Assembly (NCBI GenBank): GCA_009777955.1
Contig: WRKW01000001.1
Coordinates: 21,986 to 85,985, forward strand
DNA from: Alphaproteobacteria bacterium
GTDB taxonomy: Bacteria > Pseudomonadota > Alphaproteobacteria > Rs-D84
Length of the DNA: 64,000 nucleotides
Direction of reading: 5' to 3'
The position numbers and the translations under genes were made by a program. Shown piece by piece: positions 289 to 64,000 of the stretch (its first letter is position 1; each line of letters starts with the position of its first letter). The notes beneath the pieces are model-generated. The model was not told the DNA's origin and searched no databases. It saw only the letters and a list, made by a program, of their open reading frames with translations.

Positions 289-1356
<1,068 letters not shown>

Positions 1357-1752: not shown

Positions 1753-1861
1753 TTTCTGATTCAGGTGATATATGAAACGTGATAAGTGATGCTTACTTTT
1801 TCGGCAATTTTTAAACAATATCACTTTTTACCTATCTCTTAAAATCAGCAATAATACAAAG

Positions 1862-4324: not shown

Positions 4325-4402
4325 CGGTTAAGTACGGATAGAAATTATTGACTTGCCCGTTTGCGGTGGTAATATCCGGATGACGGACAAAAGGGGCTTT
4401 CC

Positions 4403-5874: not shown

Positions 5875-5885
5875 AAGGAAAAACA

Positions 5886-6158: not shown

Positions 6159-6159
6159 A

Positions 6160-6306
6160 GCATCGTGCGCTATGCGCACGATGCCTTATTAAATAGTAGA
6201 TGCCTGCGCCTTGTCGCGCCGGAGCGAAGGCGGAAGGCATGACGATGGTGTCGCGCTTTGCGCGACGCATTAATTATTCATTATTCACTATTCATTATTC
6301 ATTTAG
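6160..6306 (+). repeat. Composite intergenic repeat, 'family C'. Its first hairpin doubles as the likely rpsO terminator.
   Basis: Starts 2 nt after the rpsO stop with hairpin GCATCGTGCGC-tat-GCGCACGATGC. It continues as ..GGCGGAAGGCATGACGATGGTGTCGCGCTTTGCGCGACGCATTAATTATTCATTATTCACTATTCATTATTCATT. A near-identical copy lies in reverse orientation at 42956-43085, with shorter copies at 40441-40535 and 61283-61372. Confidence 0.85.
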
Positions 6307-6354
6307 TTGAAATCCACTGTTCAATAAGACATCGTACGCAAAGCGCACACCATC

Positions 6355-6450
6355 GTCATTGCGAGAAGCGGCGCGACGAAGCAATCCAGTTAATAAAGCG
6401 CGCATCTTATTTTACCGGATTGCCGCGCAAAATATTTTGCTCGCAATGAC
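6355..6450. repeat. Two facing copies of repeat 'family A' (GTCATTGCGAG-[GC-rich palindromic core]-CGAAGCAATC)
   Basis: 6355-6386 reads GTCATTGCGAGAAGCGGCGCGACGAAGCAATC. 6418-6450 is the reverse-orientation copy, GATTGCCGCGCAAAATATTTTGCTCGCAATGAC. Confidence 0.8.
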
Positions 6451-6543: not shown

Positions 6544-8556
6544 ATGAAGTTTAGCTTTCGCATTTTTGCCCTGTGCTCTGTACTTTCTATTTTTCGCGCC
6601 GATGGCGCGGTGCCTACTAATTCGCTGACACCCACGATTCAGGGTGGCGGAACCAATAATCTGACCGCGTTTACTGGAAATGTGGGCGCGATGAATAATA
6701 ATGCCTGGAATCAATCCATACAGGGGGATCGGGGTGGCGGCAACAGCGCGACTGCGGATTTTGGAAATTGTCGCGCCGTGATTTCAAGATGCGCTTCGCC
6801 GCGTTGCGGAAATGGCGGATGTACGGATTTTATGGTTGCGGCGGGAATTGTTAATGGTTGTGTACAGTCGAACGCATCTTGTCGACAGTATGGCGACGAC
6901 CTGGTGAATGCCATGGCTGCGGAACTGGTGGCTAATTCTACATCCCGGGCTAACCAGCAACAGGCACAGATGGCACAGCAACAGGCCGCGGCGGCGGCGG
7001 CATCCGATGCCGCGGCGGCGCAACAGATGGCACAGATGCAACAACAAATGGCCACCCAGATGCAGGAAATGCAGGCACAGATGGCCGCACAACAGGCAGA
7101 ATCCGCCGCACGGGTAGAAGCCGCACTGGCCGAACAACGTCAACAGGCCAGCCAGCCCCAGTCCGCACAGTCGGGTACGGATAACCAGCTGGCCCAGGCA
7201 TCTGACGCGGCCGCAAATGCCGCCGCGCTGGGGATTTCTGCGGATGTATTGGTACGTGAACAGGCTTCGGGTCAAATATTATCAAAATTGGATAATGTAA
7301 AGGCGGCGTTAAACCGCGCCAGGGCGGCGATGCAGGAAACTTTTGACTATGCCGGATGTAACAGACAGGGGGATCATTGCGCCGGTGTTCCGCGCGTATC
7401 GGCGTTTAAAGCAAAGGCACAGGCATTTTTCGAACCGTATGATGAAACCATAGATGAAGTATATGACGCATTAATAATGGCACAGGCATTGGGTGTGGAT
7501 ATAACGGATATATATATGATGTTGAATGGAAGCTGTCATGTATGGGGTCAGTATGCGTGTTCAAGCACTCAGGTAGTGAGATATGAATTGTCAGAAACTC
7601 TCGCAGAACGTGAAATTGTTGACGGAAGTTCCACGACGAAAACTAAAAATGGTCTTTGCAGGTGTGACTCAATACCACAAGGCTCTCCGGGGGCTGGTAT
7701 GATCGATATAAATAATTGTACGGATGCGTATGGAAATAAGTGTAAACCCGGTGCGGTTGTACCCATGAATGCGGGTGGGTGTCAATTGATGCAGATGCTG
7801 ACCGATACTTACACAGTGCAACAAAACTTTTTGGATTCATATACTGGAAGTAGCAGTGGTTCCAGAATTGAACTTGCATGTGCATCCGAAGCTCTAGAAC
7901 AGAACAAACTTTTTGCCCGTCGTAAAAAAGGTTCGAATATAGACATAGAATTATTGGAATATATGCTTGCGGTAGAAGCACCGAATTACCAACCGCGGAG
8001 TGGTAATCCAGCGGATAATTTCCAGTTCTGCTCTGCAAAAGATGTTGAAGTATTGCGCCGTGTTGTCCAGACCAAGAGATTGAATGAAAGAAATATATGT
8101 GTGGGGCAAAGTATGTTAAATAAAGGGCAAACCCTGGGTACAGTGGTTGCTGCCGCCCAGCCGATAAATATGATTGAAGTCGATGGGTTTTGTAAAAATT
8201 CGTGCATACAAGACGAAGAAAGTGGAGAATATAATGTAATTACAGATAATAGTGCTAAATTATATAGTGCTTTGCGAGATAATAGTTTTCATGGTGTGAC
8301 GGGAAATATAAGTAAGCTTTTGGGGGATGGTATAGATACCAAAGAAGACTGTGTAAAGGAATGTATTAAAGAAATGGAAAAAAAATTAAAGGACGATTGT
8401 CAGTCGGATGAGCATGGACCAAAAGGTACTTGGGATATTCTCCATTGTTCTTGTCCAAATAATTCAATTCATGTCCCGGACATTAGGGGTTGTAAATGCC
8501 CAACGAATCTTCCTGTTTGGGTAGGAACAGACGGTCCATGTGTGGCAAACGAATAA
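6544..8556 (+). CDS. Large secreted Cys-rich protein with a Gln/Ala/Met-rich coiled-coil-like linker (paralog of 40652-42838)
   Basis: 670 aa. Signal peptide MKFSFRIFALCSVLSIFRADG. Motif NCRAVISRCASPRCGNGGC. Low-complexity QQAQMAQQQAAAAAA..QMQEMQAQMAAQQ. 28 Cys by my count after the signal peptide. C-terminal CPTNLPVWVGTDGPC. AGAGAG SD-like sequence before the ATG. Confidence 0.75.
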   Translation: MKFSFRIFALCSVLSIFRADGAVPTNSLTPTIQGGGTNNLTAFTGNVGAMNNNAWNQSIQGDRGGGNSATADFGNCRAVISRCASPRCGNGGCTDFMVAAGIVNGCVQSNASCRQYGDDLVNAMAAELVANSTSRANQQQAQMAQQQAAAAAASDAAAAQQMAQMQQQMATQMQEMQAQMAAQQAESAARVEAALAEQRQQASQPQSAQSGTDNQLAQASDAAANAAALGISADVLVREQASGQILSKLDNVKAALNRARAAMQETFDYAGCNRQGDHCAGVPRVSAFKAKAQAFFEPYDETIDEVYDALIMAQALGVDITDIYMMLNGSCHVWGQYACSSTQVVRYELSETLAEREIVDGSSTTKTKNGLCRCDSIPQGSPGAGMIDINNCTDAYGNKCKPGAVVPMNAGGCQLMQMLTDTYTVQQNFLDSYTGSSSGSRIELACASEALEQNKLFARRKKGSNIDIELLEYMLAVEAPNYQPRSGNPADNFQFCSAKDVEVLRRVVQTKRLNERNICVGQSMLNKGQTLGTVVAAAQPINMIEVDGFCKNSCIQDEESGEYNVITDNSAKLYSALRDNSFHGVTGNISKLLGDGIDTKEDCVKECIKEMEKKLKDDCQSDEHGPKGTWDILHCSCPNNSIHVPDIRGCKCPTNLPVWVGTDGPCVANE

Positions 8557-9464: not shown

Positions 9465-9650
9465 CCCGCTTTGCGCGACACCACCGTCATGCCTGTAAAA
9501 GTCAAATAATTCGTGGACATATTCTTAACGGCAACGAAGTTGCCGTCATTCCTGCGAAGGCAGGATCCACTGTTCAATAAGAAATCGTGTGCTTTGCGCA
9601 CGATACATATATTATTCATTATTCACTATTCATTTAAAAAATGTGTCTAT
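9465..9650. repeat. Mosaic of intergenic repeat modules (family C fragment, family B element, hairpin, TTCATTAT-type tail)
   Basis: CCCGCTTTGCGCGACACCACCGTCATGCC. Then TGTAAAAGTCAAATAATTCGTGGACATATTCTTAACGGCAACGAAGTTGCCGTCATTCCTGCGAAGGCAGGATCC. Then AATCGTGTGCTTTGCGCACGAT. Then ATTATTCATTATTCACTATTCATT. Each module recurs elsewhere in the window. Confidence 0.8.
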
Positions 9651-10667: not shown

Positions 10668-10699
10668 GTCATTGCGAGTCACAAAGTGGCGAAGCAATC
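10668..10699 (+). repeat. Repeat family A copy just after the nusG stop
   Basis: GTCATTGCGAGTCACAAAGTGGCGAAGCAATC. A degenerate reverse partner, AAGATTATTTCATCGCAATGA, lies near 10737-10760. Confidence 0.8.
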
Positions 10700-13420: not shown

Positions 13421-13553
13421 GTCATTGCGAGCCACAAAGTGGCAAAGCAATCTTTTCAGATACGGGGTTTATGTTCCCAAATTTGTAAAGATTGCTTCGC
13501 GGTCTTTGACCGCTCGCAATGACACAGGGCATTCGCAGAATGCTCGCAATGAC
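13421..13553. repeat. Repeat family A: forward copy, reverse copy and a partial copy upstream of rpoB
   Basis: 13421-13452 is GTCATTGCGAGCCACAAAGTGGCAAAGCAATC. 13490-13523 is GATTGCTTCGCGGTCTTTGACCGCTCGCAATGAC. 13541-13553 is TGCTCGCAATGAC. Confidence 0.85.
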
Positions 13554-17836: not shown

Positions 17837-17844
17837 TTACTGTT

Positions 17845-17881
17845 ATTGCTTTGTCCGTCTGATGGCGTGACCCGAAATGAC
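17845..17881. repeat. Degenerate family A repeat in the rpoB-rpoC spacer
   Basis: ATTGCTTTGTCCGTCTGATGGCGTGACCCGAAATGAC compared with GATTGCTTCGTCCGCCTGACGGCGTGACTCGCAATGAC at 22754-22791. Confidence 0.6.
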
Positions 17882-22567: not shown

Positions 22568-22840
22568 GTCATTGCGAGTCGCGTCACCGCTTGCGGTGAC
22601 GGACGAAGCAATCGTTTCCGATATTTCGTGTCATTGCGAGTGGTCAAAGACCGCGAAGCAATCGTTTCCGATATTTCGTGTCATTGCGAGCCACAAAGTG
22701 GCGAAGCAATCTTTTCCAACAAAGGGAAGTATAAGAATTCCATCGCCTGGAAAGATTGCTTCGTCCGCCTGACGGCGTGACTCGCAATGACACGGAATGC
22801 TGGAAAGATTGCTTCGCGGTCTTTGACCGCTCGCAATGAC
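22568..22840. repeat. Cluster of five family A repeats: three head-to-tail forward copies, then two reverse copies
   Basis: Forward copies at 22568-22613, 22630-22663 and 22680-22711, the first two followed by the 16-nt spacer GTTTCCGATATTTCGT. Reverse copies at 22754-22791 and 22807-22840. Termini GTCATTGCGAG / CGAAGCAATC are conserved and the cores differ. Confidence 0.9.
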
Positions 22841-31537: not shown

Positions 31538-31585
31538 GAAACGCCCAAGTTATCTTTTACCAAATTAATATCTATTTGTCACCCT

Positions 31586-31658
31586 TGTAAAAGTCAAAAA
31601 TTTCGTGGATAAATTCTTAACGGCAACACAGTTGCTGTCATTCCTGCGCAGGCAGGAA
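31586..31658 (+). repeat. Repeat 'family B' element
   Basis: TGTAAAAGTCAAAAATTTCGTGGATAAATTCTTAACGGCAACACAGTTGCTGTCATTCCTGCGCAGGCAGGAAT. It is near-identical to 9494-9568. Partial copies occur at 1405-1432, 35763-35800, 40535-40590 (reverse), 53388-53425 and 56318-56350. Confidence 0.85.
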
Positions 31659-35704: not shown

Positions 35705-35857
35705 TAAGTGCCGCGAAAGCGGCATTTATTATGACTGAAAGTCGGTAGTCGATGGAATTTCTAATTATTTAACGGCAACGCAGTTGCCGTCATTTCTGCC
35801 TTTGGTATTATAATCTTATAAATTGTTATAATCTGTCCTTTTTGTTATAATGTTTTT

Positions 35858-38639: not shown

Positions 38640-40346
38640 TTACGCGTTTCGACTATTGTTTCTTTTTATCATCCACATTTGCCCTATGCCAAACAGATTG
38701 GAAACTGTCCAGTACAGGACCAGTCCCGCCGGCATCCAGGCAAACATTACGGTAAATATCAACGGCAACCATTTCATCATCTTTTGCATTTGTGCCGCTG
38801 GATTCGAAGAGTCTGTGTTGGCGGCAGTTATCTGTAAATGTTGTTGCAGCCACATGGTTGCACCCATAGCTATGGGCAGCACAAAATACGGATCCATTAC
38901 CGACAAATCGGAAATCCAAAGAAAGCCCGCCTGCCGCATGGGTACCGATATCAGCAATGCTTTATACAGCGCGAAGAATATCGGGATTTGCAAAAGCATA
39001 GGCAAACAGCCGCCCATGGGGTTGGTCTTATTGGTTTTATACAGATTCAGCATTTCCGCCTGCATACGTGTTTTATCGTCTGCGTATTGTTTTTGAATCC
39101 GTTGCATTTCCGGTTGCATTTTTTGCATGGCGGCCATGGAAGAAAATGATTTTTTGGTAAGGGGCCACATGAACATACGCAGTATGATTGTAAGTATGAT
39201 TATCGCAACACCATAGTTTCCAACCAGATCATGCAAAGCGTTAAGTGCCCAAAGAAAAGGTCGTGCCAAAAACCAAAACCATCCGTAATCAATTGTTTCT
39301 TCTATGCCTGGGATAAGATGCGCAGCGGCAGAAAGGTCGGATTGATTCTTTGGCCCTGCATAAATAATGGATGTCCAGCTGTATTCTGTACCTGGCTGTA
39401 TGGCATAGGTTTCTATGACATTATCCGCCTGGAACATTCCGTCGGAACGTTGACGCATGCGCAGGGTCTGATCCTGGCCATCGGGGGTCATTATGCGGAC
39501 AATTGTTTGCCAGTACTGATCCGTGAATCCGACAAACCCATCGCTGGTATGAAAGCTGTGTGGTTTTTTGGTCAGTGATTTCCAGCTTTCACGTTCTATT
39601 TCGCCATTTGCACGGGCAATTCCGCCCGTTTCAACCATCATTTGCGGGGTTTCGCCCGCATTGCGGACTATGCGCGCGTACTGGCCGACTGAAACCGGGG
39701 TTTTGCCATGATTTACAACGGTATCATGGGTCGATATGACATAGTTGGTTGATATGGATATACTGCGCCTGAATTCCACGTTTTCCGGCGATTTCCATGA
39801 CATTTCAATGGGATTGCCAGATGTTGCGCGGTTAATTTTCCACAGTGTTCCGGGCAGGGGAACAGATGTGCCGGTTCCCAAAAATCCGATTTCCAAAAAT
39901 TCATTATCATCGGAAAGAAGAATCATGTTAAAGGTATCATTCCCGGGGGATTGAGTTTGCGTAAAATTATCTGGAATATTTTCTATTTCCTTGTCCTTTC
40001 CAGATTCCGGGTTCGCGCCTTGCGCGCCCCGGAATGACATATCTGCTTTATAATTTTTTAATTCTATGTTTGAAATTCGCAATCCTTGGACTTTTGCTGT
40101 AACTTTTTCGCTGATCAGGGATTGTGCCGGAACGTCCGCAACGTTATCTGTTTTGGTTGTGACATTTGGTGTTTGGTTCTCGTTTTTTGATTCATTGCCC
40201 GGTACCAGCCAGCCAGAAATCAGCCAGCCACAAAGCAAAGCAATAGCAACCCAGATAAAGATACTTCCCTTGACGGGCTTTTTGGCATCACGTGCAGCCA
40301 TAAATTGTTGAAACCCGGAACCACCGTTATTCATATACTGTACCAT
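38640..40346 (-). CDS. yidC: Membrane protein insertase YidC
   Basis: The likely start is ATG 40346 (MVQYMNNGG..), preceded by AAAGGAGA. It has an N-terminal TM, a large periplasmic domain and a C-terminal core GNYGVAIIILTIILRMFMWPLTKKSFSSMAAMQKMQPEMQRIQKQYADDK...NPMGGCLPMLLQIPIFFALY. The track ORF starts at 40442. Confidence 0.93.
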   Translation of the reverse strand: MVQYMNNGGSGFQQFMAARDAKKPVKGSIFIWVAIALLCGWLISGWLVPGNESKNENQTPNVTTKTDNVADVPAQSLISEKVTAKVQGLRISNIELKNYKADMSFRGAQGANPESGKDKEIENIPDNFTQTQSPGNDTFNMILLSDDNEFLEIGFLGTGTSVPLPGTLWKINRATSGNPIEMSWKSPENVEFRRSISISTNYVISTHDTVVNHGKTPVSVGQYARIVRNAGETPQMMVETGGIARANGEIERESWKSLTKKPHSFHTSDGFVGFTDQYWQTIVRIMTPDGQDQTLRMRQRSDGMFQADNVIETYAIQPGTEYSWTSIIYAGPKNQSDLSAAAHLIPGIEETIDYGWFWFLARPFLWALNALHDLVGNYGVAIIILTIILRMFMWPLTKKSFSSMAAMQKMQPEMQRIQKQYADDKTRMQAEMLNLYKTNKTNPMGGCLPMLLQIPIFFALYKALLISVPMRQAGFLWISDLSVMDPYFVLPIAMGATMWLQQHLQITAANTDSSNPAAQMQKMMKWLPLIFTVMFAWMPAGLVLYWTVSNLFGIGQMWMIKRNNSRNA

Positions 40347-40440
40347 GAAATCTCCTTTGTACCGGGGAAGTATAACAGGAAATGGCATAGTGTAAAGGGA
40401 ATTGTACATGTCAAAAATTTCGTGAACAGAATTATAACCC

Positions 40441-40590
40441 AAACGGCTCTTTTAAAAGAGCCGTCATGCTTTCCGTTTTTTTGAATGAATAATTAATGCG
40501 TCGCGCAAAGCGCGACACCGACATTGTTATGACGGTAACTGCGTTGCTGTTAAGAATTTGTTTATGGGATTATTGAATTTTACAGTAATA
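40441..40590 (-). repeat. Mosaic repeat (hairpin, family C core, family B fragment) between the Cys-rich gene and yidC
   Basis: AAACGGCTCTTTTAAAAGAGCCGT hairpin. Then ..TTTTTTTGAATGAATAATTAATGCGTCGCGCAAAGCGCGACACC... Then GACGGTAACTGCGTTGCTGTTAAGAATTTG. All are matched elsewhere (43000s, 61300s, 9500s). Confidence 0.8.
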
Positions 40591-42955: not shown

Positions 42956-43085
42956 TATGCCTTTCGTTTTTTTGAATGAATAATGAATAGTGAATAATGA
43001 ATAATTAATGCGTCGCGCAAAGCGCGACACCATTGTCATGCCTTCCGCTGTATGATAAGGCATCGTGCACATAGCGCACGATACA
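42956..43085 (-). repeat. Family C composite repeat (reverse orientation). Its hairpin doubles as the likely tig terminator.
   Basis: The reverse complement begins 6 nt after the tig stop with GTATCGTGCGCTATGTGCACGATGC. It continues GGAAGGCATGACAATGGTGTCGCGCTTTGCGCGACGCATTAATTATTCATTATTCACTATTCATTATTCATTCAAAAAAACGAAAGGCAT, almost identical to 6160-6306. Confidence 0.85.
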
Positions 43086-46199: not shown

Positions 46200-46709
46200 C
46201 TAACGTTTATGCACAAATTTATTCCCGGCCGCTTTTTTAAGCCGATAATATTCATACGCCGCATGTGCCGATATGCCACCGGTTAACGCGGTTACGGATC
46301 CAAAAAGTATACATGCCAGTGGTACGTCTATAATATCCCTTGCCACTGTTGCCGCATAAACGATGATAAAGGCACCCAATATGGTTGGTATCGCGTATAC
46401 CATTGCTTTGACTTTGCAACTATACATATCGTTTTCATAGAATATATGGAATCTTTCATAATACTTGTCTTTCCATTCCCGGTTCTGGTTCATATATGCT
46501 TCGCGGACGGCAAATTCATCAAATCCGTCTTTTGATGGCGAATGCTTGCACAGGAAATTCATCGCATCCCCCAATTTCTGAAATTCTTCTTTGCTTCCGC
46601 CGTGATCAGGATGGTGAATTTTCGCTTTTGTGCGATATGCTTTTTTAAGATCTTTTAACGATGCGTCGCGTGACAGTCCCAAAATATCGTATGCTTCTAT
46701 ATAGTTCAT
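46200..46709 (-). CDS. J-domain protein with two C-terminal transmembrane helices
   Basis: 169 aa. YDILGLSRDASLKDLKKAYRTKAKIHHPDHGG contains the HPD motif. The C-terminal hydrophobic stretches are AMVYAIPTILGAFIIVYAA and LACILFGSVTALTGGISA. Confidence 0.75.
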   Translation of the reverse strand: MNYIEAYDILGLSRDASLKDLKKAYRTKAKIHHPDHGGSKEEFQKLGDAMNFLCKHSPSKDGFDEFAVREAYMNQNREWKDKYYERFHIFYENDMYSCKVKAMVYAIPTILGAFIIVYAATVARDIIDVPLACILFGSVTALTGGISAHAAYEYYRLKKAAGNKFVHKR

Positions 46710-46805
46710 GTTATTTCCTTTTTACAGGAATATTATATGTCTAAATTATCCTTTGTCAAGTTATTTACGGTGGAAAAATATTATGGATTCAAGCATAATG
46801 TGATT

Positions 46806-47693
46806 ATGGCTGAAAAATTAAATTCTTTACCACCAGTTGCGGAAATGATGCGCGGCGCGGGTCTGGAGCCCAAAAGGCAGCTGGGGCAGAATTTTCTTTT
46901 CGACCTTAACCTTACCCTGCGTATCGCGCGCGCGGTGCCGGATATAGAAAACACAACTGTAATAGAAGTCGGTCCAGGACCGGGCGGCCTTACCCGCGCG
47001 TTGTTATCTTTGGGTGCAAAGCGTGTCATTGCAATTGAAAAAGATAAAACGACTGCGTCCATTCTTGAACAGATTTCGGCGGCAAGCGATGATCGGTTGG
47101 AAATTATTTTTGCAGATGCATTGAAGTTATTCGAGCCATTGCAAGAAGAGTGTGGTAAGGGGGTATTTCACGTGTCTGAAAAGATTGCTTCGTCCGTCAT
47201 CGCAAGCGGTAGTGCGACTCGCAATGACATTCATAATAAATACGCCATTTGTTCCAATCTTCCATATAATATAGGGACAGAGCTATTAATCCGCTGGCTA
47301 CGCATGGATAATATTTCATCCATGACATTGATGTTCCAGCGTGAAGTCGCACAGCGTATAGTTGCAAAGGTTGGCAATCCACAGTATGGACGATTGTCAG
47401 TGCTGACATCATTAACCGCAGATGCAAAAATTTTATTTGATGTTCCGAATACGGCTTTTGTTCCGCGTCCCAAAGTTCAAAGTGCGGTTGTCCAAATTTT
47501 TCCCAGATCCAGGATTGAATGTATAACGAAAGTTGAAAGGCTGACCGCGAAACTGTTCGGCCAAAGGCGCAAGATGATACGCGGAATAATGCCGGATATA
47601 AATTGGCCGGAATTTGGATTAACCGGACGGGAACGCGCCGAAGAACTGTCACCTGAAAAATTTGCCGAAATCGCCGCCAAGATTATGATATAA
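46806..47693 (+). CDS. rsmA: 16S rRNA (adenine1518/1519-N6)-dimethyltransferase RsmA/KsgA, carrying an in-frame repeat insertion
   Basis: GQNFLFD, VIEVGPGPGGLT (SAM-binding) and SNLPYNIGTELL. The likely start is ATG 46806 (MAEKLNS..), where the track starts at 46737. The segment ..SEKIASSVIASGSATRNDIH.. is encoded by a family A repeat. Confidence 0.9.
   Translation: MAEKLNSLPPVAEMMRGAGLEPKRQLGQNFLFDLNLTLRIARAVPDIENTTVIEVGPGPGGLTRALLSLGAKRVIAIEKDKTTASILEQISAASDDRLEIIFADALKLFEPLQEECGKGVFHVSEKIASSVIASGSATRNDIHNKYAICSNLPYNIGTELLIRWLRMDNISSMTLMFQREVAQRIVAKVGNPQYGRLSVLTSLTADAKILFDVPNTAFVPRPKVQSAVVQIFPRSRIECITKVERLTAKLFGQRRKMIRGIMPDINWPEFGLTGRERAEELSPEKFAEIAAKIMI
47178..47230. repeat. Family A repeat inserted in-frame within rsmA
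   Basis: GAAAAGATTGCTTCGTCCGTCATCGCAAGCGGTAGTGCGACTCGCAATGACAT. Its reverse complement matches copy 22568-22613 (GTCATTGCGAGTCGCGTCACCGCTTGCGGTGACGGACGAAGCAATC) with 3 core mismatches. Confidence 0.85.
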
Positions 47694-53269: not shown

Positions 53270-53496
53270 GTTTTGTCCTTTTGGTTTTGCTTAGAAAAAT
53301 TATAGCGTAAAAAATATTGCAAAGGCAATGATTATTTTTCCAGTTTATCCCCGATTATAGCATGCAGATTAAGGTGCGAAACGAACATTTTCTTAACGGC
53401 AACTGCGTTGCTGTCATTCCCGCTTCAATGTTTATATAAGCCGTTTGCGGGCAAAGCCCGCGAATACAAATATGTCGGTGTGTTTATTACACAGTA

Positions 53497-56423: not shown

Positions 56424-58901
56424 TTACAATATCGGTGGGAAGCAGTCGCCGTCGCCGGATGCAGGACAGCAAGAACCAGTGGGTGAATCGGGGCTGGTAA
56501 CGCTTGGGTCGAATACTTCACCCATGCTTGCACAACAGCCTTCATGATCCGGTGGGCTTCCGTCATCACAGCTTATACCCATAGAAACAGCGGGTGGTGG
56601 CGGTGGTGGTTTTTCAAATGGGTTTTTCAGCATGGTGCCGGCATCATTATATTGCAGTCCCAAAATCTGTTGATTATATTCCTGGGAACTCGGGGCCAAT
56701 ATTTGACCGCTTTGTGTGGTTATTCCGCCACGATTGCTTAAATCTTGCCAATAAGTGTTATATGCGGCTTGGGTTCTGCCCTGGTACATGTTTGATTTGC
56801 ACCAGAATTCCGCAGCCCGATAATCCAGGCCTTTTGCTTGTAATTGAGCTGCATCAAGTGCAACTTCGCCGGTATTGTTGCCATTATTATCTGTTTCACA
56901 AACGCCTTGCATGCTGGTGGTAAACGCGCGAACCTGTCCCATCCATTCTTCGGGGTTGTTTGACATTTTCAGTTGGTTGCTTGGATTTACATAAGGTCTG
57001 TAAAATTCGCTGGGGGCATGGATTGCACATTTTTTATTTTCGATACCTTCCTCGCCGCATGTTACTACCAGATCGGTTGGCGAAAATACTGTTATTCTGG
57101 TTCCGGCTGCGATAGAGAATGGCGGGGTGGTATTTTCCAACATATCCATGGTAAGTTTTTGCACAACCTTGTTCCAGGTGGATATTATTTCCTGTTTTGC
57201 AAGTTCGCTGGAACGAACTTGTCCGGACTGTGTCACTGTATTGTTATCAAGATCAATCTGATTCACGAACCTGTCCGATATAGGCGCGATAAGGTTAACG
57301 GCCGCAGGAACCACAGCTGTTATCATGGGCATAAGCATACTTTCTATATAGTCTGTGGTTCCGTATCCTGGCACTCCGGCACGACCCTGGCTGTCGGCGG
57401 AAAACGGTTCTTGATCGCCTGCAAAATTAAATTCCACGCCATCCGGTCGTACAAATCGGTACCATTTTATATCCATTCGTCCTATGGATCTGTATGGCCC
57501 TGGCAGTTCGCCCGTCATGAAACCCAACATCATGGTTCCGGCCGGAACTATTATTGTGCGGCCGTTATCGGAATATACGTGGCGATCGACAGTTGCTGTG
57601 ACCGGCAGATGCGACATGCGCTTTGGATCCGCGCGAATTTCTGAAACGATTGTCGCCGGTATAGGCTTGAACTGGCGCAGGACAAATGTACGGTCGTGTG
57701 GAACGCTGGATACGGTCGCTTCGGCACCTATGGAAGATGGCAAAAGACTGCTGACTGTTCTTTGTTCTCTCATTTCTATACGGGTGGCTTCGCCTGCCGC
57801 CGGGGTTGGGGCTGATGATTGTTGCGCCCTGTTTATTGTGCGACCGCTTCTTGCGCTGGAAAGATTTGGCAGGGCAAGATTTGCAGTAACACTGCGTGCA
57901 CCGATACGTTCTGAATCAGAGCCGATTGTCTTTGATTTATTCTTTATGTCATAAATCAGACCAGTATCCGGATTGTATTCGCCCGTGGGATTATTGCAAT
58001 CTCTGTCACTGAACGGATGGTACATATACCGACCGCCGTCTGCACGAATCCATCCAGAATGTCTTCCAGATAAATTATATCCAGCAAATGCGAATTCGTA
58101 ACACAGCTCTGCCGCTGGTGTAGCATCAATGATTACATCATTGGAAACTGGGGCTTGGGGACGGGGTTCCGGCACAGGCAACGGTTCTGGTTCGAATTCG
58201 GGTTCAAATTCTTGTTCGTACTCTGGTTCGAAAGGCAAATCTTCTTCAAAAGTAAGATCCGGTTCCAATGAATCAAAAACAGGGTCGATTTCTTCAAAAA
58301 TAAATGTTGGTTCCGGTTCTGTTATGCTGAACGGTTCTGTGTTTTCTATATTCGTTAATGTTTCCGGTTGGCGGGCGGGTATATTTTCATTTTTTGATTC
58401 TTTCGCCGATAACAGAACTGGTAACTTTTCCATTTCCGACATGCTTGCCGGTTGGGTTGCCGAATGATATATTATCTGGATTTCCGCACCAGTATCTTTC
58501 AGCGGAACATCCGGTTTGAATTCCAATGTTATGTTGCATGGAACTTTTGGCGAAATTACCCCCATGTTAGTGCAAGTGGAACGCTGGGTCAGCCCATGAG
58601 AATCGGGATCTTCCAATCCGGCGATTTTAACATCTGCAATCTTTACATCCGTTGTTGCTGAAACTTCGATTCTTTGGGTTCTGGTATCGCCGACCGTGAC
58701 ATCGCGCCATTCTATTTCAGTCGTATCCAGCACAATACCGATTTTTACAGCGGTGGTTGTTCTTTGCGTTTTTTTCGGACTGGATAATACTAGCAAAAGT
58801 AAAATCACTACTACCAGAAACGCCGCGAACAAAAGCAACCATTGCACATGAACAGGCAACTGTTGTCTAAGATTTGTGAAAAATTCTTTAAGTTTGCTCA
58901 T
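56424..58901 (-). CDS. virB10: VirB10/TrbI-family type IV secretion core protein with an extra N-terminal module and a Cys/Pro-rich C-terminal extension
   Basis: 825 aa. N-terminal TM WLLLFAAFLVVVILLLLVL, acidic/Pro-rich EPEFEPEPLPVPEPRPQAP, and TrbI-like core IPATIVSEIRAD..VTATVDRHVYSDNGRTIIVPAGTMMLGFMTG...GRMDIKWYRFVRPDGVEF...SQGRAGVPGY...AGTRITVFSPTDLVV. A tail of about 212 aa with 10 Cys and PPPPPP follows. Confidence 0.8.
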   Translation of the reverse strand: MSKLKEFFTNLRQQLPVHVQWLLLFAAFLVVVILLLLVLSSPKKTQRTTTAVKIGIVLDTTEIEWRDVTVGDTRTQRIEVSATTDVKIADVKIAGLEDPDSHGLTQRSTCTNMGVISPKVPCNITLEFKPDVPLKDTGAEIQIIYHSATQPASMSEMEKLPVLLSAKESKNENIPARQPETLTNIENTEPFSITEPEPTFIFEEIDPVFDSLEPDLTFEEDLPFEPEYEQEFEPEFEPEPLPVPEPRPQAPVSNDVIIDATPAAELCYEFAFAGYNLSGRHSGWIRADGGRYMYHPFSDRDCNNPTGEYNPDTGLIYDIKNKSKTIGSDSERIGARSVTANLALPNLSSARSGRTINRAQQSSAPTPAAGEATRIEMREQRTVSSLLPSSIGAEATVSSVPHDRTFVLRQFKPIPATIVSEIRADPKRMSHLPVTATVDRHVYSDNGRTIIVPAGTMMLGFMTGELPGPYRSIGRMDIKWYRFVRPDGVEFNFAGDQEPFSADSQGRAGVPGYGTTDYIESMLMPMITAVVPAAVNLIAPISDRFVNQIDLDNNTVTQSGQVRSSELAKQEIISTWNKVVQKLTMDMLENTTPPFSIAAGTRITVFSPTDLVVTCGEEGIENKKCAIHAPSEFYRPYVNPSNQLKMSNNPEEWMGQVRAFTTSMQGVCETDNNGNNTGEVALDAAQLQAKGLDYRAAEFWCKSNMYQGRTQAAYNTYWQDLSNRGGITTQSGQILAPSSQEYNQQILGLQYNDAGTMLKNPFEKPPPPPPAVSMGISCDDGSPPDHEGCCASMGEVFDPSVTSPDSPTGSCCPASGDGDCFPPIL

Positions 58902-58940
58902 TTTTCATAAGGCGCAATATGACAAGTCTGTCATATTGCG

Positions 58941-60437
58941 TTATTGTATTCTTACCACATGACAGGCGACCGATTGGAACTTTTGCAATTGGTTGCAAAG
59001 CGTCTGAGCCTGATCTATGCCCGCCAACGGGCCGATACGCAGACGGTACAGTCGGGCAGAGCTGTTACCACCACCCAAATCGCCAACACCTTGTTCATCT
59101 ATTGCGAAGAACACTTTATCCCTGTAAGGAGTCAAGATTCCCGCGCCCTCATCACCGCTGAACTTTGCAAGCATCGTAGTCCAGTAATCATTAAGTGCCT
59201 TTACCGATGTGTCGGATCGCAATTCTACCGCGACACCAGCCTGATTGCTTGTAATCAGCGGTATGTTTGTTTGTGGCAGATATGATCCCGCAGTATTGCG
59301 TTGTTGTGGTACCATGTTCAGACCCGGGCTGCCCAAAGGCATAGTTGTTGGCGCACCGTGCATTTGTTGCATCGGCATCATCGGAACTTGTTGCATTCCG
59401 TACATCTGCTGCATCTGCATCATTCCACCATCCATCACAGGCATGCCAAAATAGCCAACATTGTTAAGTGATTGGGACGAATGCATGCTGCGTGCGACAT
59501 TTGCTTCTGCCAGGGCCATTACGCTTGCGGTATCTGCGATCAAGAATGGCTTTTCACGTTTCTTGATGCATACAAGCCGTTGACCGCTGCGCAGAACCAT
59601 ATCGCCGACCGCTTCGACGATAAGCAGGCGACCGTGTTCTCCATCAGTCCTGAACCCTACTGGACTTTCACCGCCTTCGATCAATATTGATACAACGGGT
59701 CGCTGTGTCATAGCGATGACTTTGTCTCCGAAATCGATATAGGTGAATATGCGGTCGCGCCATACGCGTTCCGGGGCAATAACATAATCGTCGGGATTTG
59801 GAACGAATATATCCAGATCGAACCGGAATTCTGATGGATCTATTTTCATTGTTTTTATCCAGCCATAATCTTCGCCGTCTGCCCCAATTGTATTGGTTCC
59901 GGCACCACTTTTTCTGGGAAATATTGAATTCATTCCGCCGCCGCTTGTTTGTCCGGCAGATGCAAAATTAACGGGCATGCTTGAATTGCCATCCAGTACA
60001 ACATCGACCTGGGTATATGTGATTTCCGATGAATTCGATGGTTCGGATCGCAAATAGAACAGGTATATGTTCCCGGATTTTCCGGTGACGATAAGGTTTG
60101 TGTCAGACCCCATATTATTTTCCAGCGGGGATATAAGCATTGTGCGACTGCCTTTTTGGACATCAAACTTGAACAGGCCATCACTTCCAATATCCCCCGC
60201 TTCAATCGCTTCCCCCTGGGGCAGATTTACCATGGTAACCATTCCAGTGCGCAGTTTTATTGGCAAGATTGTGCCAGAGCTCCAGGTAAGCCTTGCATAT
60301 CCGGGTTTCAGTGAACCGGCGGCCATGTTGGCTTCTGGGTGATCCCATGCCTCTTGGATATTTGCGTGCGCCTTTCCGATAAATATGGAAAAGCAAAACG
60401 CAAGGCACAAGGCGCAAAGCATAGATAGTTTTTTCAT
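58941..60437 (-). CDS. virB9: VirB9/TrbG/CagX-family type IV secretion core protein fused to a Met/Gln-rich linker and a SPOR-like domain
   Basis: 498 aa. Signal peptide MKKLSMLCALCLAFCFSIFIGKAHA. N-domain ..LPIKLRTGMVTMVNLPQGEAIE...TNLIVTGKSGNIYLFYL. C-domain IAPERVWRDRIFTYIDFGDKV..RPVVSILIEGGESPVGFR..LLIVEAVGDMVLRSGQRLVCIKK. Then MMQMQQMYGMQQVPMMPMQQM, and finally ..LYRLRIGPLAGIDQAQTLCNQLQKFQSVACHVVRIQ. Confidence 0.8.
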   Translation of the reverse strand: MKKLSMLCALCLAFCFSIFIGKAHANIQEAWDHPEANMAAGSLKPGYARLTWSSGTILPIKLRTGMVTMVNLPQGEAIEAGDIGSDGLFKFDVQKGSRTMLISPLENNMGSDTNLIVTGKSGNIYLFYLRSEPSNSSEITYTQVDVVLDGNSSMPVNFASAGQTSGGGMNSIFPRKSGAGTNTIGADGEDYGWIKTMKIDPSEFRFDLDIFVPNPDDYVIAPERVWRDRIFTYIDFGDKVIAMTQRPVVSILIEGGESPVGFRTDGEHGRLLIVEAVGDMVLRSGQRLVCIKKREKPFLIADTASVMALAEANVARSMHSSQSLNNVGYFGMPVMDGGMMQMQQMYGMQQVPMMPMQQMHGAPTTMPLGSPGLNMVPQQRNTAGSYLPQTNIPLITSNQAGVAVELRSDTSVKALNDYWTTMLAKFSGDEGAGILTPYRDKVFFAIDEQGVGDLGGGNSSARLYRLRIGPLAGIDQAQTLCNQLQKFQSVACHVVRIQ

Positions 60438-60511
60438 ACTCTTTCCTTTAACAAATGTTTCAAGAGAGTTTCAGACATCCGGTATATACGGAAATTTATG
60501 CCTTTTGCTCT

Positions 60512-61192
60512 CTAAAAATCCAGCGGATCCCTGCCACCTTCAACCGTATATTCCGACACAAATATACCCAGCGGGTTTTCAAGACGACTTGCCCATTTTA
60601 TGGTATTATCGTCATTACGGTTAATTTTGAAATCTATTCCTATGATAATTGTATAATCTTTTCGGCCTATTTGTAAAGCATTATCCTCGCAGAAATATTT
60701 GAAATTTACTTCGTATGTCGAATTTCCCCTTTCGCCGCGTTTCAAAAGACTTACGGGGCGATCCGCAAATTCGACCCGGCACACCAGCCTTGAATCCGGC
60801 ACGTTGGTCATTATCGACTGGAACATCCTTGTCTGTGTGAATGCGTTATAGACTTCGGAACTGGACCATATGTTGACCATTCCGTTTTCACCCGTCCACC
60901 ATTTCCGTCGCATGACATTGATATTTGGTATGATTTCATTGCGGACTTTTATATATTCCCTTACAAAGTTTTCCTTGAATTCTTCGATATTCGCATCATT
61001 CGGAAAATAAGATCGCACGGTTATATGGCTGTCTGCGCGTGGTTCAGTGGTAAGAATGAAAATTTGGGTTTTCGACAGGGGCAAAATGTTGGACAAAGTC
61101 ACGACCAGTGCGACAACGGTCGCGAGCGCGGTCGCGAACACGAATGTCAGGATTCTGGACATTAAAATAGGCGGTTCTATGGTATTCATCAC
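60512..61192 (-). CDS. virB8: VirB8/TrbF-family type IV secretion inner-membrane protein
   Basis: 226 aa. Single N-terminal TM ILTFVFATALATVVALVVTL, FVREYIKVRNEI (family-typical F...Y...re.y) and C-terminal ENPLGIFVSEYTVE (NPLGF.V..Y motif). Confidence 0.7.
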   Translation of the reverse strand: MMNTIEPPILMSRILTFVFATALATVVALVVTLSNILPLSKTQIFILTTEPRADSHITVRSYFPNDANIEEFKENFVREYIKVRNEIIPNINVMRRKWWTGENGMVNIWSSSEVYNAFTQTRMFQSIMTNVPDSRLVCRVEFADRPVSLLKRGERGNSTYEVNFKYFCEDNALQIGRKDYTIIIGIDFKINRNDDNTIKWASRLENPLGIFVSEYTVEGGRDPLDF

Positions 61193-61282
61193 TCCCCCAT
61201 GCGGGGAGTGTAGTAAAAACCACTAACCCTTGGCAAGTGCTTTTTTAATTGCCGGATGTGCTTCAAATCATAATCCACAGCG

Positions 61283-61372
61283 GCAGGCATGACGATGGTG
61301 TCGTGCTTTACGCGACGCATTAATTGTTCATTCAAAAAAACGAAAGGCATGATGGCTCTCTTGCGAGAGCAG
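61283..61372 (+). repeat. Family C repeat plus hairpin between the giant repeat-protein gene and the VirB8-like gene
   Basis: GGCAGGCATGACGATGGTGTCGTGCTTTACGCGACGCATTAATTGTTCATTCAAAAAAACGAAAGGCATGATGGCTCTCTTGCGAGAGC. Confidence 0.8.
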
Positions 61373-61383
61373 TTCGGGTTATA

Positions 61384-64000
61384 TCATGTCAATTGTTTAT
61401 CGATCATTTGGATTTGTTTACTAACTTCTTCCTGCTCTTTAATAGATTGCTTTTGGCTAGTTTTCTTTTCTTTTTTCAACTTATTAATTTTAAGTTGTGA
61501 TGCCTTGGCAGCTTTGGCTTTTTCGGCCTTTTCTTTTTTGATTTCTGCTTCTAATTCGTCGTCTTTTTTCGTTCCTTTCTCTTTTACTATTTCCATCTTT
61601 TGTGTCAGCCTTCTTTTCGCTTCTTTGATAAGTTCCTCTTTATGCTTAGACACTTCTTTTTTAACAATGTTTTTCGATGCTTCGATGTTGTATCTGGCAC
61701 TGTCGTTATCCATTATCTGTTTAATAGTTAAGCTTTTAGCATGGTTGATTCCCGGTTGATGTTTTTTTAGTTCCGTAATTGTTTTTGGATCTGTTACCCG
61801 CATCCTTTGTTCAGCAAGTTGGTTGATCATTTCAGGGGTCGGATTTTGACCCAGCATCTCTAACAATTCGTTCAGAAGTTTTTCAACAGTCTGAAAATTC
61901 TTTACATTATTTAATACTTCCATTAAGTTTCCGGCTTGTTTTATCTGTTCCAGCGTAAGGCTTTGGATATTTACACCATCTATATCCAATGTCTTTTTTA
62001 ATTTATCCAGTGTTTCTCTTTCATTGTCCGAGAATTGTCCTATACCAAATAATTTCCTTAACTTTTCGGCGCGTTCAGATTCTTCTTTCGAAAGATTCGG
62101 GTCGTCTTTCATGGCAAGTATGTTTTTTAATGCTTCCGATATATTTGCGGCTTTTTTACGATCCCAGTCCCCATCTCTCAGTTGAATTTTTAATTCTTCA
62201 GCGTGTTTCAGGTCTTCTGATGTAAGAGATCCAGATATGCTTCCTTTATTCAGTATTCCTTTTAATTCTTTTTTTACCGTTTGTTCAAAATCATCTAAAT
62301 GATGCTCGCTTAATTCATTTCTTAATTTTTCGGCATCAATTTCAACACGTTGAAGTTGCTTCGGTGTAAGGCCGGATCTGTTCCCTTTTCTTAAAACTTC
62401 TTCCAATTCTTTCAGTTCTTTTAATTTTTTGTCCAGCTGTATTTGCTTAATGCGATTGTTTTCTTCGATAGATTCCCTTTTGGGATCATCCAGGATGGGT
62501 TTTTCATCTGGGTTATCTATATCTGGGGCATCAACCCTGTCATCTGGTGTTAATGGCTCATCTTCGGATATTTCACTTTGGCTATCTATATCGTCGGATT
62601 TATCGGTGCCCGGTTCTGGCATACCGTCTATATCTGGGGCATCAACCCTATCATCTGGTGTTAATGGCTCATCTTCGGATATTTCACTTTGGCTATCTAT
62701 ATCGTCGGATTTATCGGTGCCCGGTTCTGGCATGCCGTCTATATCTGGGGTATCAACCCTGTCATCTGAGATTATAATAGGGATAGATGAGTCCCCACTA
62801 TCATTTGAGATTACAATAGGAATAGGTAATGGAACAGGTGGTTCTTTATCATTATCGGTTTCAACGTTTACGTTTTTTCTCCATATCTCAGAAAATTTTT
62901 GGATTTTTGTTGTCTTATAAACTTTTTCTTTTTCCTCTTCTGAAAGTTGCGCAAAGGCAGTTTCATAAATTTTTCCGATTTCAGGATTCAGATCTTTACC
63001 CATATTCGCAAAATTTTCAATATAATCTTTATCATCAAAAGCATCCTCTCCTATAAGATGATCGAATAGCATTGGTTTGTTATTTACCATTGCGCATATG
63101 TCATCAATGTAATATCCGAATTTGTCGTTATATAAGATGATAATATCTTTCCAATCTTTCGAAAGTTCCGGTTCAGCAGTTTTTTCCACACTTTTTTCCC
63201 AAAAATATTCGGAATCAAAAAGTTTGTTCTTTTTTTCGATCTCTTTTTTCAAATTCTCGATAGCCTTTTTGTCACCGGCCATTGCATCATCAAACAATTC
63301 TTTTGCAGATTTATTTTTGCCGGGATTATCGAAAAATTTCTTTATCTCGGCGGCTTTATCTTTTAACTTGTTACCAATTTTTTTGGCTTCATTTATACCC
63401 CTATCAATTAAACCGTCGGGTTGTTTTTTTTCTGTTTGATCATGCTGAGAGTCCTCTTCGTTTGTTTTGTCGTCTATGTCTCCGGGGCCTATGCGATATT
63501 TGTTATTTTCTGGGTCTTTGGGCCATTTATTCACACTGGTCATTATCATGTTAAAAAATTGCTTAAATTCTTTTTTTTCAGATTTTTCAGATGCATCGTC
63601 TTCTGCACGCCAGCTTTTCAGAAAACGGTGAATTCTATTGTGGTTGCTGGTTATCTGTATCGCACCGTTAAATACTTCGTATCCATAGTCATCCCCAGAG
63701 AAATTTATATATATAGCATTGGGATAAATATGTATTTCTGATTTTTTATCTTTCAAGTCAGATTTTAATTGATTCATAAACTTTTGATAAGGAATATTTT
63801 CGTAATGTTTTTGAATCTTTCTATCGGTATCATCTTCTTGGCGAACTTTTTCCATAATTTTATAAAGATCAACATTGCCATCTTTTTGGGCTTCCAAAAC
63901 TTTTTGTATAAAATCCCTTGTTCGCCCGGGGGCAAAAGTCAATTTTTTTCCGGAAGTTTTGGCTTCTAAATGTGTGCATATTGATACGACTTCGTCAAAA
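61384..64000 (-). CDS. Very large Lys/Glu/Asp-rich repeat-containing protein (N-terminus probably outside the window)
   Basis: The track ORF is 852 aa from TTG 63942, but the frame stays open to base 64000 (..FDEVVSICTHLEAKTSGKK-LTFAPG..). There is no TM or signal peptide in the visible part. It has acidic 37-aa tandem repeats, recurring '(K/T)(P/L)EQ..(L/I)xxAExL' helical units and a poly-Lys/Glu C-terminus. Confidence 0.7.
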   Translation of the reverse strand, partial: FDEVVSICTHLEAKTSGKKLTFAPGRTRDFIQKVLEAQKDGNVDLYKIMEKVRQEDDTDRKIQKHYENIPYQKFMNQLKSDLKDKKSEIHIYPNAIYINFSGDDYGYEVFNGAIQITSNHNRIHRFLKSWRAEDDASEKSEKKEFKQFFNMIMTSVNKWPKDPENNKYRIGPGDIDDKTNEEDSQHDQTEKKQPDGLIDRGINEAKKIGNKLKDKAAEIKKFFDNPGKNKSAKELFDDAMAGDKKAIENLKKEIEKKNKLFDSEYFWEKSVEKTAEPELSKDWKDIIILYNDKFGYYIDDICAMVNNKPMLFDHLIGEDAFDDKDYIENFANMGKDLNPEIGKIYETAFAQLSEEEKEKVYKTTKIQKFSEIWRKNVNVETDNDKEPPVPLPIPIVISNDSGDSSIPIIISDDRVDTPDIDGMPEPGTDKSDDIDSQSEISEDEPLTPDDRVDAPDIDGMPEPGTDKSDDIDSQSEISEDEPLTPDDRVDAPDIDNPDEKPILDDPKRESIEENNRIKQIQLDKKLKELKELEEVLRKGNRSGLTPKQLQRVEIDAEKLRNELSEHHLDDFEQTVKKELKGILNKGSISGSLTSEDLKHAEELKIQLRDGDWDRKKAANISEALKNILAMKDDPNLSKEESERAEKLRKLFGIGQFSDNERETLDKLKKTLDIDGVNIQSLTLEQIKQAGNLMEVLNNVKNFQTVEKLLNELLEMLGQNPTPEMINQLAEQRMRVTDPKTITELKKHQPGINHAKSLTIKQIMDNDSARYNIEASKNIVKKEVSKHKEELIKEAKRRLTQKMEIVKEKGTKKDDELEAEIKKEKAEKAKAAKASQLKINKLKKEKKTSQKQSIKEQEEVSKQIQMIDKQLT
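62516..62768. repeat. 111-bp tandem repeat (2.3 copies) inside the giant gene
   Basis: Units start at 62516, 62627 and 62738 (TCTATATCTGGGGCATCAACCCT..), differ by a few substitutions and encode DRVD(T/A)PDIDGMPEPGTDKSDDIDSQSEISEDEPLTPD on the minus strand. Confidence 0.9.

Follow-up and report, generated by a model that had tools for sequence, protein, structure and literature searches.

How does a gene for a ribosomal RNA methyltransferase come to hold, inside its reading frame, a unit of DNA whose sister copies all lie between genes? The question is raised by rsmA (ksgA) in a 64,000-nucleotide stretch of an Alphaproteobacteria bacterium (GTDB lineage Rs-D84; assembly GCA_009777955.1, contig WRKW01000001.1, positions 21,986 to 85,985 of the forward strand), which is called the window below. 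An earlier interpretation made from the letters of this DNA, here the sequence-only reading, had placed a reversed copy of a short repeat within the gene. The analysis reported here leads us to favour, with a probability of about 0.8, the view that a solo unit of a hairpin-forming interspersed repeat was inserted in frame in rsmA and is tolerated as a surface loop. The gene, the repeat copy and the parts of the copy are as follows.

46806-47693, plus strand: rsmA (ksgA) coding sequence, 16S rRNA A1518/A1519 dimethyltransferase, assigned from Pfam, PDB match, model and synteny.
47170-47231, minus strand: solo palindromic-repeat unit, the entire span of similarity in alignments to other copies; in-frame peptide (H)VSEKIASSVIASGSATRNDI.
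47218-47228, minus strand: 5' box GTCATTGCGAG, exact match; the sense strand codes ..T-R-N-D..
47193-47217, minus strand: unit interior, a decayed hairpin TCGC-ACTACCGC-TT-GCGATGAC-GGA with about four pairs left of an 8-bp stem.
47183-47192, minus strand: 3' box CGAAGCAATC, exact match; the sense strand codes ..I-A-S..
47170-47182, minus strand: 3' tail of the unit, TTTTCAGACACGT, matching the tail of the copy at 13421 and tails or linkers in the 22568-22840 cluster.
47167-47170: TTCA, the left copy of a 4-nt direct repeat that encloses an insert of 63 nt (21 codons).
47230-47233: TTCA, right member of the same direct repeat.

The complete unit reads GTCATTGCGAG-TCGCACTACCGCTTGCGATGACGGA-CGAAGCAATC from 47228 to 47183 on the minus strand, antisense to the gene, and both of its boxes are intact at 21 of 21 bases; the reversed copy proposed earlier is thus present. 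It is identical at 42 of 46 positions to an intergenic unit at 22568-22613, with which it shares the same unusual 25-nt interior. Three core substitutions had been counted between these two copies, but the alignment gives four, and all four fall in hairpin-stem positions. With 16 stem positions among the 46, the chance of that outcome is C(16,4)/C(46,4), or ~0.011. Folded as DNA, the unit in rsmA has a z score of -0.74 and about four of eight pairs, against -2.95 and a perfect 8-bp stem for the sister unit. The likeness to other copies extends beyond the boxes: the tail TTTTCAGACACG resembles TTTTCAGATACG at 13453, the base or bases 5' of the box are also similar, and 47176-47196 is 95% identical to 22747-22767. 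The location first given for the copy, 47178-47230, therefore holds but its limits do not, since similarity reaches about 47170-47231.

Translated within the open reading frame (ORF) at 46737-47693, rsmA reads through the unit as ..HVSEKIASSVIASGSATRNDIH.. / ..GKGVFHVSEKIASSVIASGSATRNDIHNKYAICSNLPYN.., with neither a stop nor a frameshift, as had been claimed. Four of the six frames of this unit are open. Removal of 47167-47229 (63 nt) gives ..EECGKGVFHNKYAICSNLPYN.., with a connector whose length is inside the range of the orthologs. The flanking TTCA pair could be a target-site duplication, microhomology or chance.

The unit belongs to a family that is far more abundant in the window than chance would allow. 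The window holds 13 copies of the 5' box with one mismatch at most, where 1.19 would be expected and no shuffle out of 100 attains that number; of the 3' box it holds nine (0.63 expected). When a unit is defined as both boxes 3-45 nt apart with at most two mismatches each, 12 units and one degenerate copy are found, where ~0.15 would be expected and 20 shuffles yield 0-1. Every unit other than the rsmA copy is intergenic; the copies are these.

22568-22613, plus strand: closest sister copy, with the perfect 8-bp stem, first of a five-unit intergenic cluster.
22630-22663 (plus), 22680-22711 (plus), 22754-22791 (minus) and 22807-22840 (minus): remainder of that cluster, 22630-22840, between a HAD-like gene after rpoC and mraZ.
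13421-13452 (plus) and 13490-13523 (minus): inverted doublet with an extra 5' box at 13543-13553 (minus), 13421-13553 in all, between rplL and rpoB; z -8.1.
10668-10699, plus strand: solo unit, 6 nt past the nusG stop and before rplK.
6355-6450: inverted doublet, its second arm with a two-mismatch 3' box, downstream of rpsO; fold z -3.6.
17844-17881, minus strand: degenerate unit with 2+2 box mismatches, in the rpoB-rpoC spacer.

Units thus stand alone, follow one another across a 16-nt linker, or form inverted doublets, to which the 22680/22791 pair also belongs (z -9.7 for its span, 22675-22795). When the single strand is folded, doublets adopt a four-way, cruciform-type shape, in which the heads form an outer stem, each arm forms a hairpin, and the tail boxes form a central stem. 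Most intergenic units are stop-free in four or five of six frames, and two units in three, so that an insertion that keeps frame has a good chance of staying open.

Two other roles or relationships were considered for these units and set aside. The T-rich tails, and the tendency of units to point away from the upstream gene, suggested a terminator function; no unit is picked out by a consensus terminator scan, which finds as many candidates overall as in shuffled sequence. A possible doublet partner for the rsmA unit lies at 47138-47148, 34 nt upstream of the 3' box of the unit and 24 nt upstream of the similarity span. Its sequence, GCCATTGCAAG, agrees with the 5' box at 9 of 11 positions and has the expected orientation. 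It was judged a probable chance match because a partner 3' box is missing, the spacing is unfit, and the orthologs have residues that pair with its codons (DELGI, against EECGKGV here). An Rfam search found no family at gathering threshold over the window, and permissive E-values on the two richest clusters brought up only generic long-hairpin microRNA matches far below gathering; the repeat is thus no known RNA family.

The host gene is RsmA/KsgA as judged by domain, motifs and predicted fold. Pfam RrnaAD (PF00398) matches residues 46-313 of the product of ORF 46737-47693 (plus) at 3.7e-46. A PDB sequence search gives 39 KsgA/Dim1/TFB1M/Erm matches, of which the best is 4jxj, the RsmA of Rickettsia bellii (4.8e-48; 38% identity). 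The AlphaFold2 (AF2) model, built on a 26-sequence alignment, has a mean predicted local distance difference test score (pLDDT) of 83.9, and its Foldseek TM-scores, normalised to the target (TMt), are 0.84 to 4jxj and 0.79-0.82 to E. coli KsgA entries. Class I methyltransferase motifs I-IV (GxGxG, acidic, DAL, NLPY) and the two-domain KsgA fold are present. The alignment-invariant columns G79/G81/G84 (GPG..G), E101, D127-A128 and N174-L175-P176-Y177-N178 (NLPYN) are all kept, a retention that holds by construction, the query being one of the 26 aligned sequences. To call the gene essential, as the sequence-only reading did, was an overstatement: the abstract of PMC2807437 describes rsmA/ksgA as conserved universally, yet “generally not essential for growth”.

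Comparison with orthologs decides whether the extra segment was gained or inherited. The homolog search returned 8000 sequences, and the alignment comprises the query and 25 close homologs (65-76% identity over aligned columns). Uncultured Alphaproteobacteria/Rickettsiales metagenome-assembled genomes provide the nearest of them, none above 76% identity over aligned columns. The gene order recR-rsmA-kefB recurs in five related contigs; that the order is kept indicates that the compared RsmA proteins are orthologs. The repeat-derived segment is absent from all 25 close homologs in the alignment, and at the insert site R. bellii RsmA (4jxj) has six residues where the window protein has 34. The connector from DAL to NLPY, 44 residues long in the window protein, spans 14 and 21 residues in two uninserted relatives (L001 and L003), and by manual count the longest uninserted DAL-to-NLPYN connector in the alignment is 24 residues. 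No repeat occurs in the loop DNA of L001 and L003. Because the segment is missing from the 25 orthologs and from R. bellii RsmA, it is, on this alignment, an insertion of repeat DNA into rsmA, about 63 nt long, and the earlier preference for insertion over an ancestral loop is borne out.

The insert enters the Rossmann fold in the connector between strand β3 (motif III, DAL, residues 121-125) and strand β4 (motif IV, NLPYN, residues 169-173), in keeping with its first placement between the S-adenosylmethionine (SAM)-binding fold and the NLPYNI motif. AF2 gives pLDDT values of 57-66 at residues 131-170 and of 93-96 on both flanks, with two predicted helices, at 146-156 and (short) at 162-166. 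The predicted picture, a low-pLDDT excursion between two confident strands, accords with the suggestion that the peptide may be tolerated as a surface loop. In the PDB-search alignment human TFB1M has a naturally longer connector at the same site, which indicates that the site accepts extra length.

The family extends well beyond the window. An exact-pattern scan over one genome per GTDB species found at least 120 loci, and among the matches listed the box pair occurs in more than 15 phyla, with viral contigs in addition; these matches come from complete isolate genomes as well as from metagenome-assembled genomes. Alphaproteobacteria among them include many Bradyrhizobium, Sphingomonadales, Rickettsiales, a Tisiphia chromosome (L084) and a Rickettsia endosymbiont (L124). 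Other groups among the matches listed are Gammaproteobacteria, Deltaproteobacteria, Chloroflexota, Bacteroidota, Patescibacteria, Nostoc, Planctomycetota, Zixibacteria, Omnitrophota, Armatimonadota and Helicobacter rodentium. From the 120 listed loci 192 units were extracted, the commonest being GTCATTGCGAG-GAGCGAAGCGA-CGAAGCAATC-CAG and the short arm GTCATTGCGAG-CGAAG-CGAAGCAATC, and 119 of 181 units have an inverted partner no more than 80 nt away. Interiors vary, often as stems with GAA- or GCA-type loops, and 40 of 113 distinct interiors hold a perfect stem of at least 4 bp. Outside the head, units across phyla show a bias at positions -1 and -2 only (pyrimidines, an extension of the palindrome), with no sign of a target duplication. 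The viral contigs of IMG/VR yielded at least 120 matches in a scan, with up to six units per contig.

It was also considered that the boxes might enclose a small gene cassette, such as an IVS protein or one of GxxExxY or DUF559 type. When 971 ORFs lying no more than 400 bp away from copies in the 120 listed loci were clustered, the clusters consisted only of spurious ORFs running through the repeat and of unrelated housekeeping genes, and the idea was rejected. Peptides of the spurious ORFs include RHCEERSDEAIQ, LDCFASLAMT, SLRAKRSNP and VIASEAKQS. In the open-access full-text literature no paper was found that prints the boxes or six repeat-encoded peptides, or that describes the element.

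Residence inside genes also recurs elsewhere. Long ORFs in the listed loci were surveyed for units at least 50 codons from either end and checked with Pfam; the cases found are the following.

L105, Patescibacteria: RsmA, ORF 870-1811, unit 1229-1268; RrnaAD 4.4e-45; peptide ..KPDGIASSLPGVAPRNDIEIW..
L053, Gammaproteobacteria: guaA, 4145-5746, unit 4513-4543; the GATase domain (1.5e-42) spans the insert; full doublet, fold z -2.75.
L093, Bacteroidales: purL, 2355-6245, unit 5290-5320, between domains.
L097, Curtissbacteria: ATP-dependent DNA ligase, 1187-3094, unit 2015-2050; the adenylation domain falls into two stretches.
L116, Omnitrophica: PfkB kinase, 690-1664 (minus strand), unit 947-978; the domain spans the insert; ..SLRGAKRRSNL..
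L025, Pseudomonadales (label of a metagenome-assembled genome): TrwB/NUDIX protein, unit 3375-3409, in a linker.

The patescibacterial RsmA carries its insert in a different loop, which joins the second strand/helix to the third strand; orientation and frame are those of the copy in the window gene. Since in-frame units reside in real proteins of other phyla, such residence is a property of the family and not a single event. Together with the dispersed copies, these independent in-frame copies uphold the earlier proposal that the family is, or was, mobile.

RsmA itself appears to have received palindromic elements several times, as seen in three relatives of the window protein.

P0015 (L004:414-1370): a different 123-nt palindrome, TTCCCCTCCTTTGGAGGGG...CCCCTCCAAAGGAGGGGAA, in the same connector, in frame; fold z -10.4.
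P0041 (L125:6797-7792): a doublet of about 150 nt, GTCATCCCGGG...TCCGGGATGAC, in a later loop, in frame; fold z -7.7.
P0033 (L126:10001-10951): a single GTCACCCCGGCGAAGGCCGGGGCTC hairpin in a third loop, in frame; fold z -3.7.

As read from these sequences, at least four independent placements of palindromic elements in RsmA loops have occurred in the alphaproteobacterial clade, the window included, and RsmA counts at least five independent inserts in all. A possible second copy of the P0041 insert, a 14-mer match at ~1450 of L125, proved to be ordinary mutS coding sequence. Separately, P0065, a metagenomic RsmA homolog of 438 residues, is recorded with DUF559 (PF04480) and REase_MTES_1575 (PF18741), a nuclease-type module fused or inserted.

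A sequence of events can be proposed for the window gene. A unit made of the 5' box GTCATTGCGAG, a variable GC-rich mini-hairpin and the 3' box CGAAGCAATC would have been moved as single-stranded hairpin DNA by a trans-acting enzyme not encoded in the window, and would have landed in the β3-β4 connector as an insert of about 63 nt, where the 4-nt TTCA may reflect duplication or microhomology. The gene would thereby have gained about 21 residues (..HVSEKIASSVIASGSATRNDI..), forming a flexible or short-helical surface excursion from an intact KsgA fold. The reading frame stays open because the unit lies in one of its four stop-free frames and because the insert length is a multiple of three. Four stem substitutions would then have degraded the hairpin while the catalytic motifs of RsmA were kept. 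Selection, on this proposal, would act only as a filter, in that frame is kept, stops are avoided and loops are the sites hit. The insert is most likely a neutral, tolerated passenger rather than a functional module.

Several observations weigh against this account. Neither a transposase nor a RAYT gene is found among the ORFs of the 64-kb window scanned with Pfam, no gene recurs next to units in the 120 listed loci, and no target-site duplication surrounds the doublets at 6355-6450 or 13421-13523; the mobilisation step is a conjecture, and the TTCA repeat may be a coincidence. The databases hold no relative closer than ~76% identity, and no near-identical strain with an empty site was seen. 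Both insert junctions are read from the assembled contig. The perfect boxes of the rsmA copy could signify either a recent insertion or constraint on the boxes. Because the model has low confidence at the insert, the surface-loop claim derives from topology and not from a confident structure, and continued activity of the enlarged RsmA is presumed.

Among other explanations the one that survives best is that the insert was exapted, that is, kept by selection through a new peptide surface or regulation, or through an mRNA-level hairpin acting in stability, pausing or antisense termination. The repeated striking of RsmA, with four members of the clade (window included) carrying palindromic loop inserts and a patescibacterial RsmA carrying the same element in like orientation and frame, could be taken in this sense, as could the 21 intact box bases and the predicted helix at 146-156. 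The inserts of RsmA differ, however, in family, position and peptide, a pattern that fits tolerance better than a common function. The hairpin of the window copy is degraded, its peptide is modelled at low pLDDT, and the segment occurs in no ortholog and so shows no sign of conservation. Exaptation is therefore considered unlikely.

Somewhat less likely again is an inactivated RsmA, in which an intact-looking pseudogene or a weakened allele would persist in a genome that dispenses with KsgA. The general dispensability of the family, as stated in PMC2807437, would permit this, and the insert does lie within the catalytic domain, between motifs III and IV. Against it, the frame of 296 codons is wholly open, every alignment-invariant position is kept, and the fold outside the loop is modelled with high confidence. 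The connector, moreover, varies naturally in length, from 14 to ~24 residues in relatives and also in TFB1M.

An assembly artefact, in which the assembler or a chimeric read spliced a repeat unit into rsmA, is improbable. A repeat-rich, metagenome-assembled contig from a genome full of near-identical short repeats would offer occasion for such a join, at the very junctions noted above. But the rsmA unit differs from every other copy in the window and has four private differences, the rsmA sequence is colinear on either side of it, and a length that keeps frame and an exact siting in a variable loop would both be rare for a random mis-join; in-frame copies of like kind also occur in independent assemblies of other organisms. 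That the segment is an ancestral RsmA loop, resembling the repeat by chance or having itself given rise to the repeats, can be dismissed as refuted, for beyond the variable length of the connector nothing favours it, and it is contradicted by the 42/46 identity to an intergenic unit with exact boxes and a common tail, by the rarity of paired boxes (about 0.15 expected per window), by absence from the 25 homologs and R. bellii RsmA, and by the occurrence of the family in phyla that lack this rsmA allele.

The reading preferred here, in-frame insertion of a solo repeat unit, invites comparison with known interspersed elements. By analogy the family behaves like the REP/REPIN repeats or the Rickettsia palindromic elements (RPEs), its architecture being closest to the former and its outcome to the latter. 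REP/REPIN elements are short extragenic imperfect palindromes with a GTAG/GTGG-type head, normally species-specific, that are moved as single-stranded hairpins by RAYT transposases. The window family resembles them in its 30-46 nt units with a conserved head and an imperfect hairpin; in its mainly extragenic location, often just downstream of operons; in its singlets, tandem clusters and inverted doublets with long hairpins; and in the lack of an evident target-site duplication. It differs in its head, (Y)(Y)GTCATTGCGAG, which begins with GTCA rather than a GTAG/GTGG-type motif, in boxes that are identical across phyla, and in the absence of a RAYT from the window ORFs and from the vicinity of copies in the 120 listed loci. 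In-frame copies within genes are not known as a trait of REPs.

MITEs, miniature transposable elements with inverted repeats, offer a second comparison. They too are small non-autonomous repeats with inverted ends, some with open frames and translational fusions, and the doublets of the window family end in GTCATTGCGAG / CTCGCAATGAC. However, solo and tandem arms occur in this family, the unpartnered arm in rsmA among them. The window provides no transposase of a parent insertion sequence, and there is no consistent target-site duplication but only the 4-nt TTCA at the rsmA copy. In-frame fusion with host ORFs is reported for ERIC, BOX, QMITE1 and Anabaena MITEs (PMC10969869).

RPE-1 to RPE-10 are about 150 bp long and often reside in frame in unrelated housekeeping genes, with a peptide thought to be located at the protein surface (PMC10969869). 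They are the documented case of frequent in-frame palindromic insertion, and a 2024 review regards such insertion outside Rickettsia as only “conceivable” (PMC10969869). The parallel with RPEs that the sequence-only reading drew was examined here by description (size, host and behaviour). As an analogy it is apt, in that interspersed palindromic repeats of an alphaproteobacterium, mostly stop-free, have entered a loop of a housekeeping gene in frame and recurrently; exact-box units are found, too, on the Rickettsia-endosymbiont contig L124 and the Tisiphia chromosome L084. In size, host and spread the two differ. The insert is a solo unit of 62-63 nt with a 46-nt core (46-62 nt by either measure of the unit), and the doublets of the window reach about 100-115 nt, against ~150 bp for RPEs. 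The host is not Rickettsia, and its RsmA is 38% identical to that of R. bellii. Finally, RPEs are regarded as a Rickettsia feature, whereas among the matches listed the box pair spans more than 15 phyla and also viral contigs.

The connector that received the unit has its own history of length change: within the KsgA/Dim1/TFB1M family, mitochondrial TFB1M has a longer β3-β4 segment than bacterial KsgA does, and in the RsmAs of this clade the segment ranges from 14 to 24 residues. These natural extensions are not derived from repeats in DNA, unlike the window insert with its 42/46 match to an intergenic repeat.

The rsmA case itself is of a known type; the notable part is the spread of the family across phyla and its repeated in-frame residence, twice in RsmA. 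In-frame palindromic insertions have hitherto been mainly a Rickettsia curiosity, and the window case lies outside that genus. It is also a clean one, with donor family, acceptor loop and uninserted orthologs all visible. Genuine enzymes of Patescibacteria, Gammaproteobacteria, Bacteroidota and Omnitrophota carry the 21-nt box pair in frame. In annotation work the family yields many spurious ORFs and unexpected loop insertions; for protein evolution, its insertions are natural experiments in loop tolerance; and for the study of mobile elements, it points to a widespread hairpin element and a putative mobilising enzyme.

A wider proposal may be put forward tentatively, and we hold it to be doubtful rather than probable. 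The GTCATTGCGAG...CGAAGCAATC unit might represent a single lineage within a class of “GTCAT-stem-loop-stem-ATC” hairpins that spreads horizontally through bacteria at large and perhaps includes RPE units. Such hairpins would be stop-poor in most frames and would repeatedly add peptides of 10-50 residues to the surface loops of housekeeping enzymes, with RsmA as one that receives them recurrently. A hairpin-DNA mobilisation system, possibly carried from host to host by phages, would spread the units. If this were true, protein-coding palindromes would be general among bacteria and not a peculiarity of Rickettsia. On the contig of the Rickettsia endosymbiont of Pyrocoelia pectoralis (L124), at ~190-280 and ~6690-6860, exact-box units stand beside other GTCAT...ATC-type hairpin units, including GGATCCCGTGGACAAGCCACGGGATGA. 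Their shared unit design hints at a wider superfamily. GGATCCCGTGGACAAGCCACGGGATGA resembles RPE sequences, and one of the units encodes a ..LDPVDKPRDD.. type of peptide like that of RPEs; this is a lead only.

The ends and surroundings of rsmA can be described briefly. The mechanical ORF starts at 46737, and orthologs begin at the methionine encoded at 46806 (M24). M24 is probably the true start, the first 23 codons being untranslated, as suggested by the ortholog starts and by the promoter of a divergent gene that lies inside the N-terminal extension: a 12/12 sigma-70 consensus, TTGACA-16-TATAAT, at 46759-46732, serving a DnaJ-domain gene. That gene, 46200-46709 (minus strand), encodes a protein with a hydrophobic C-terminal half and separates recR from rsmA, two genes that overlap directly in the five related contigs. 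Upstream of rsmA lies recR, and downstream a gene for a Na+/H+ exchanger with a TrkA_N domain (kefB-like).

Further small intergenic palindromic repeat families, at least three in number, occur in the window, several of them with a GTCAT-stem-loop-stem design; example palindromes are TTAACGGCAAC..GTTGCCGTCATTCCTGCGAAGGCAGGA, CATCGTGCGC..GCGCACGATG and GTCGCGCAAAGCGCGAC. Their positions fall into three sets.

1398-1435, 9486-9565, 31578-31657, 35762-35799 and 53386-53423: set 1.
6144-6354, 9566-9607 and 43044-43085: set 2.
6230-6282, 40484-40519, 42996-43031 and 61280-61332: set 3.

The viral-contig loci with the box pair are L127-L206 (for example L141, L162 and L202), viral by the classing of IMG/VR. 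Elsewhere in the window, YidC (38640-40442, minus strand) has 600 residues against 518-542 in L001 and L003, and may hold another insertion. A Rickettsiales-style type IV secretion cluster at 56424-61192 (minus strand) encodes VirB10/TrbI-like (825 residues), VirB9/CagX-like (498 residues) and VirB8-like (226 residues) proteins, of which the VirB10-like protein is unusually long. Beside virB8/virB9/virB10, an ORF of 852 residues at 61384-63942 (minus strand), with no Pfam match, contains three tandem 111-nt (37-codon) repeats of 97-98% identity at 62516-62768.

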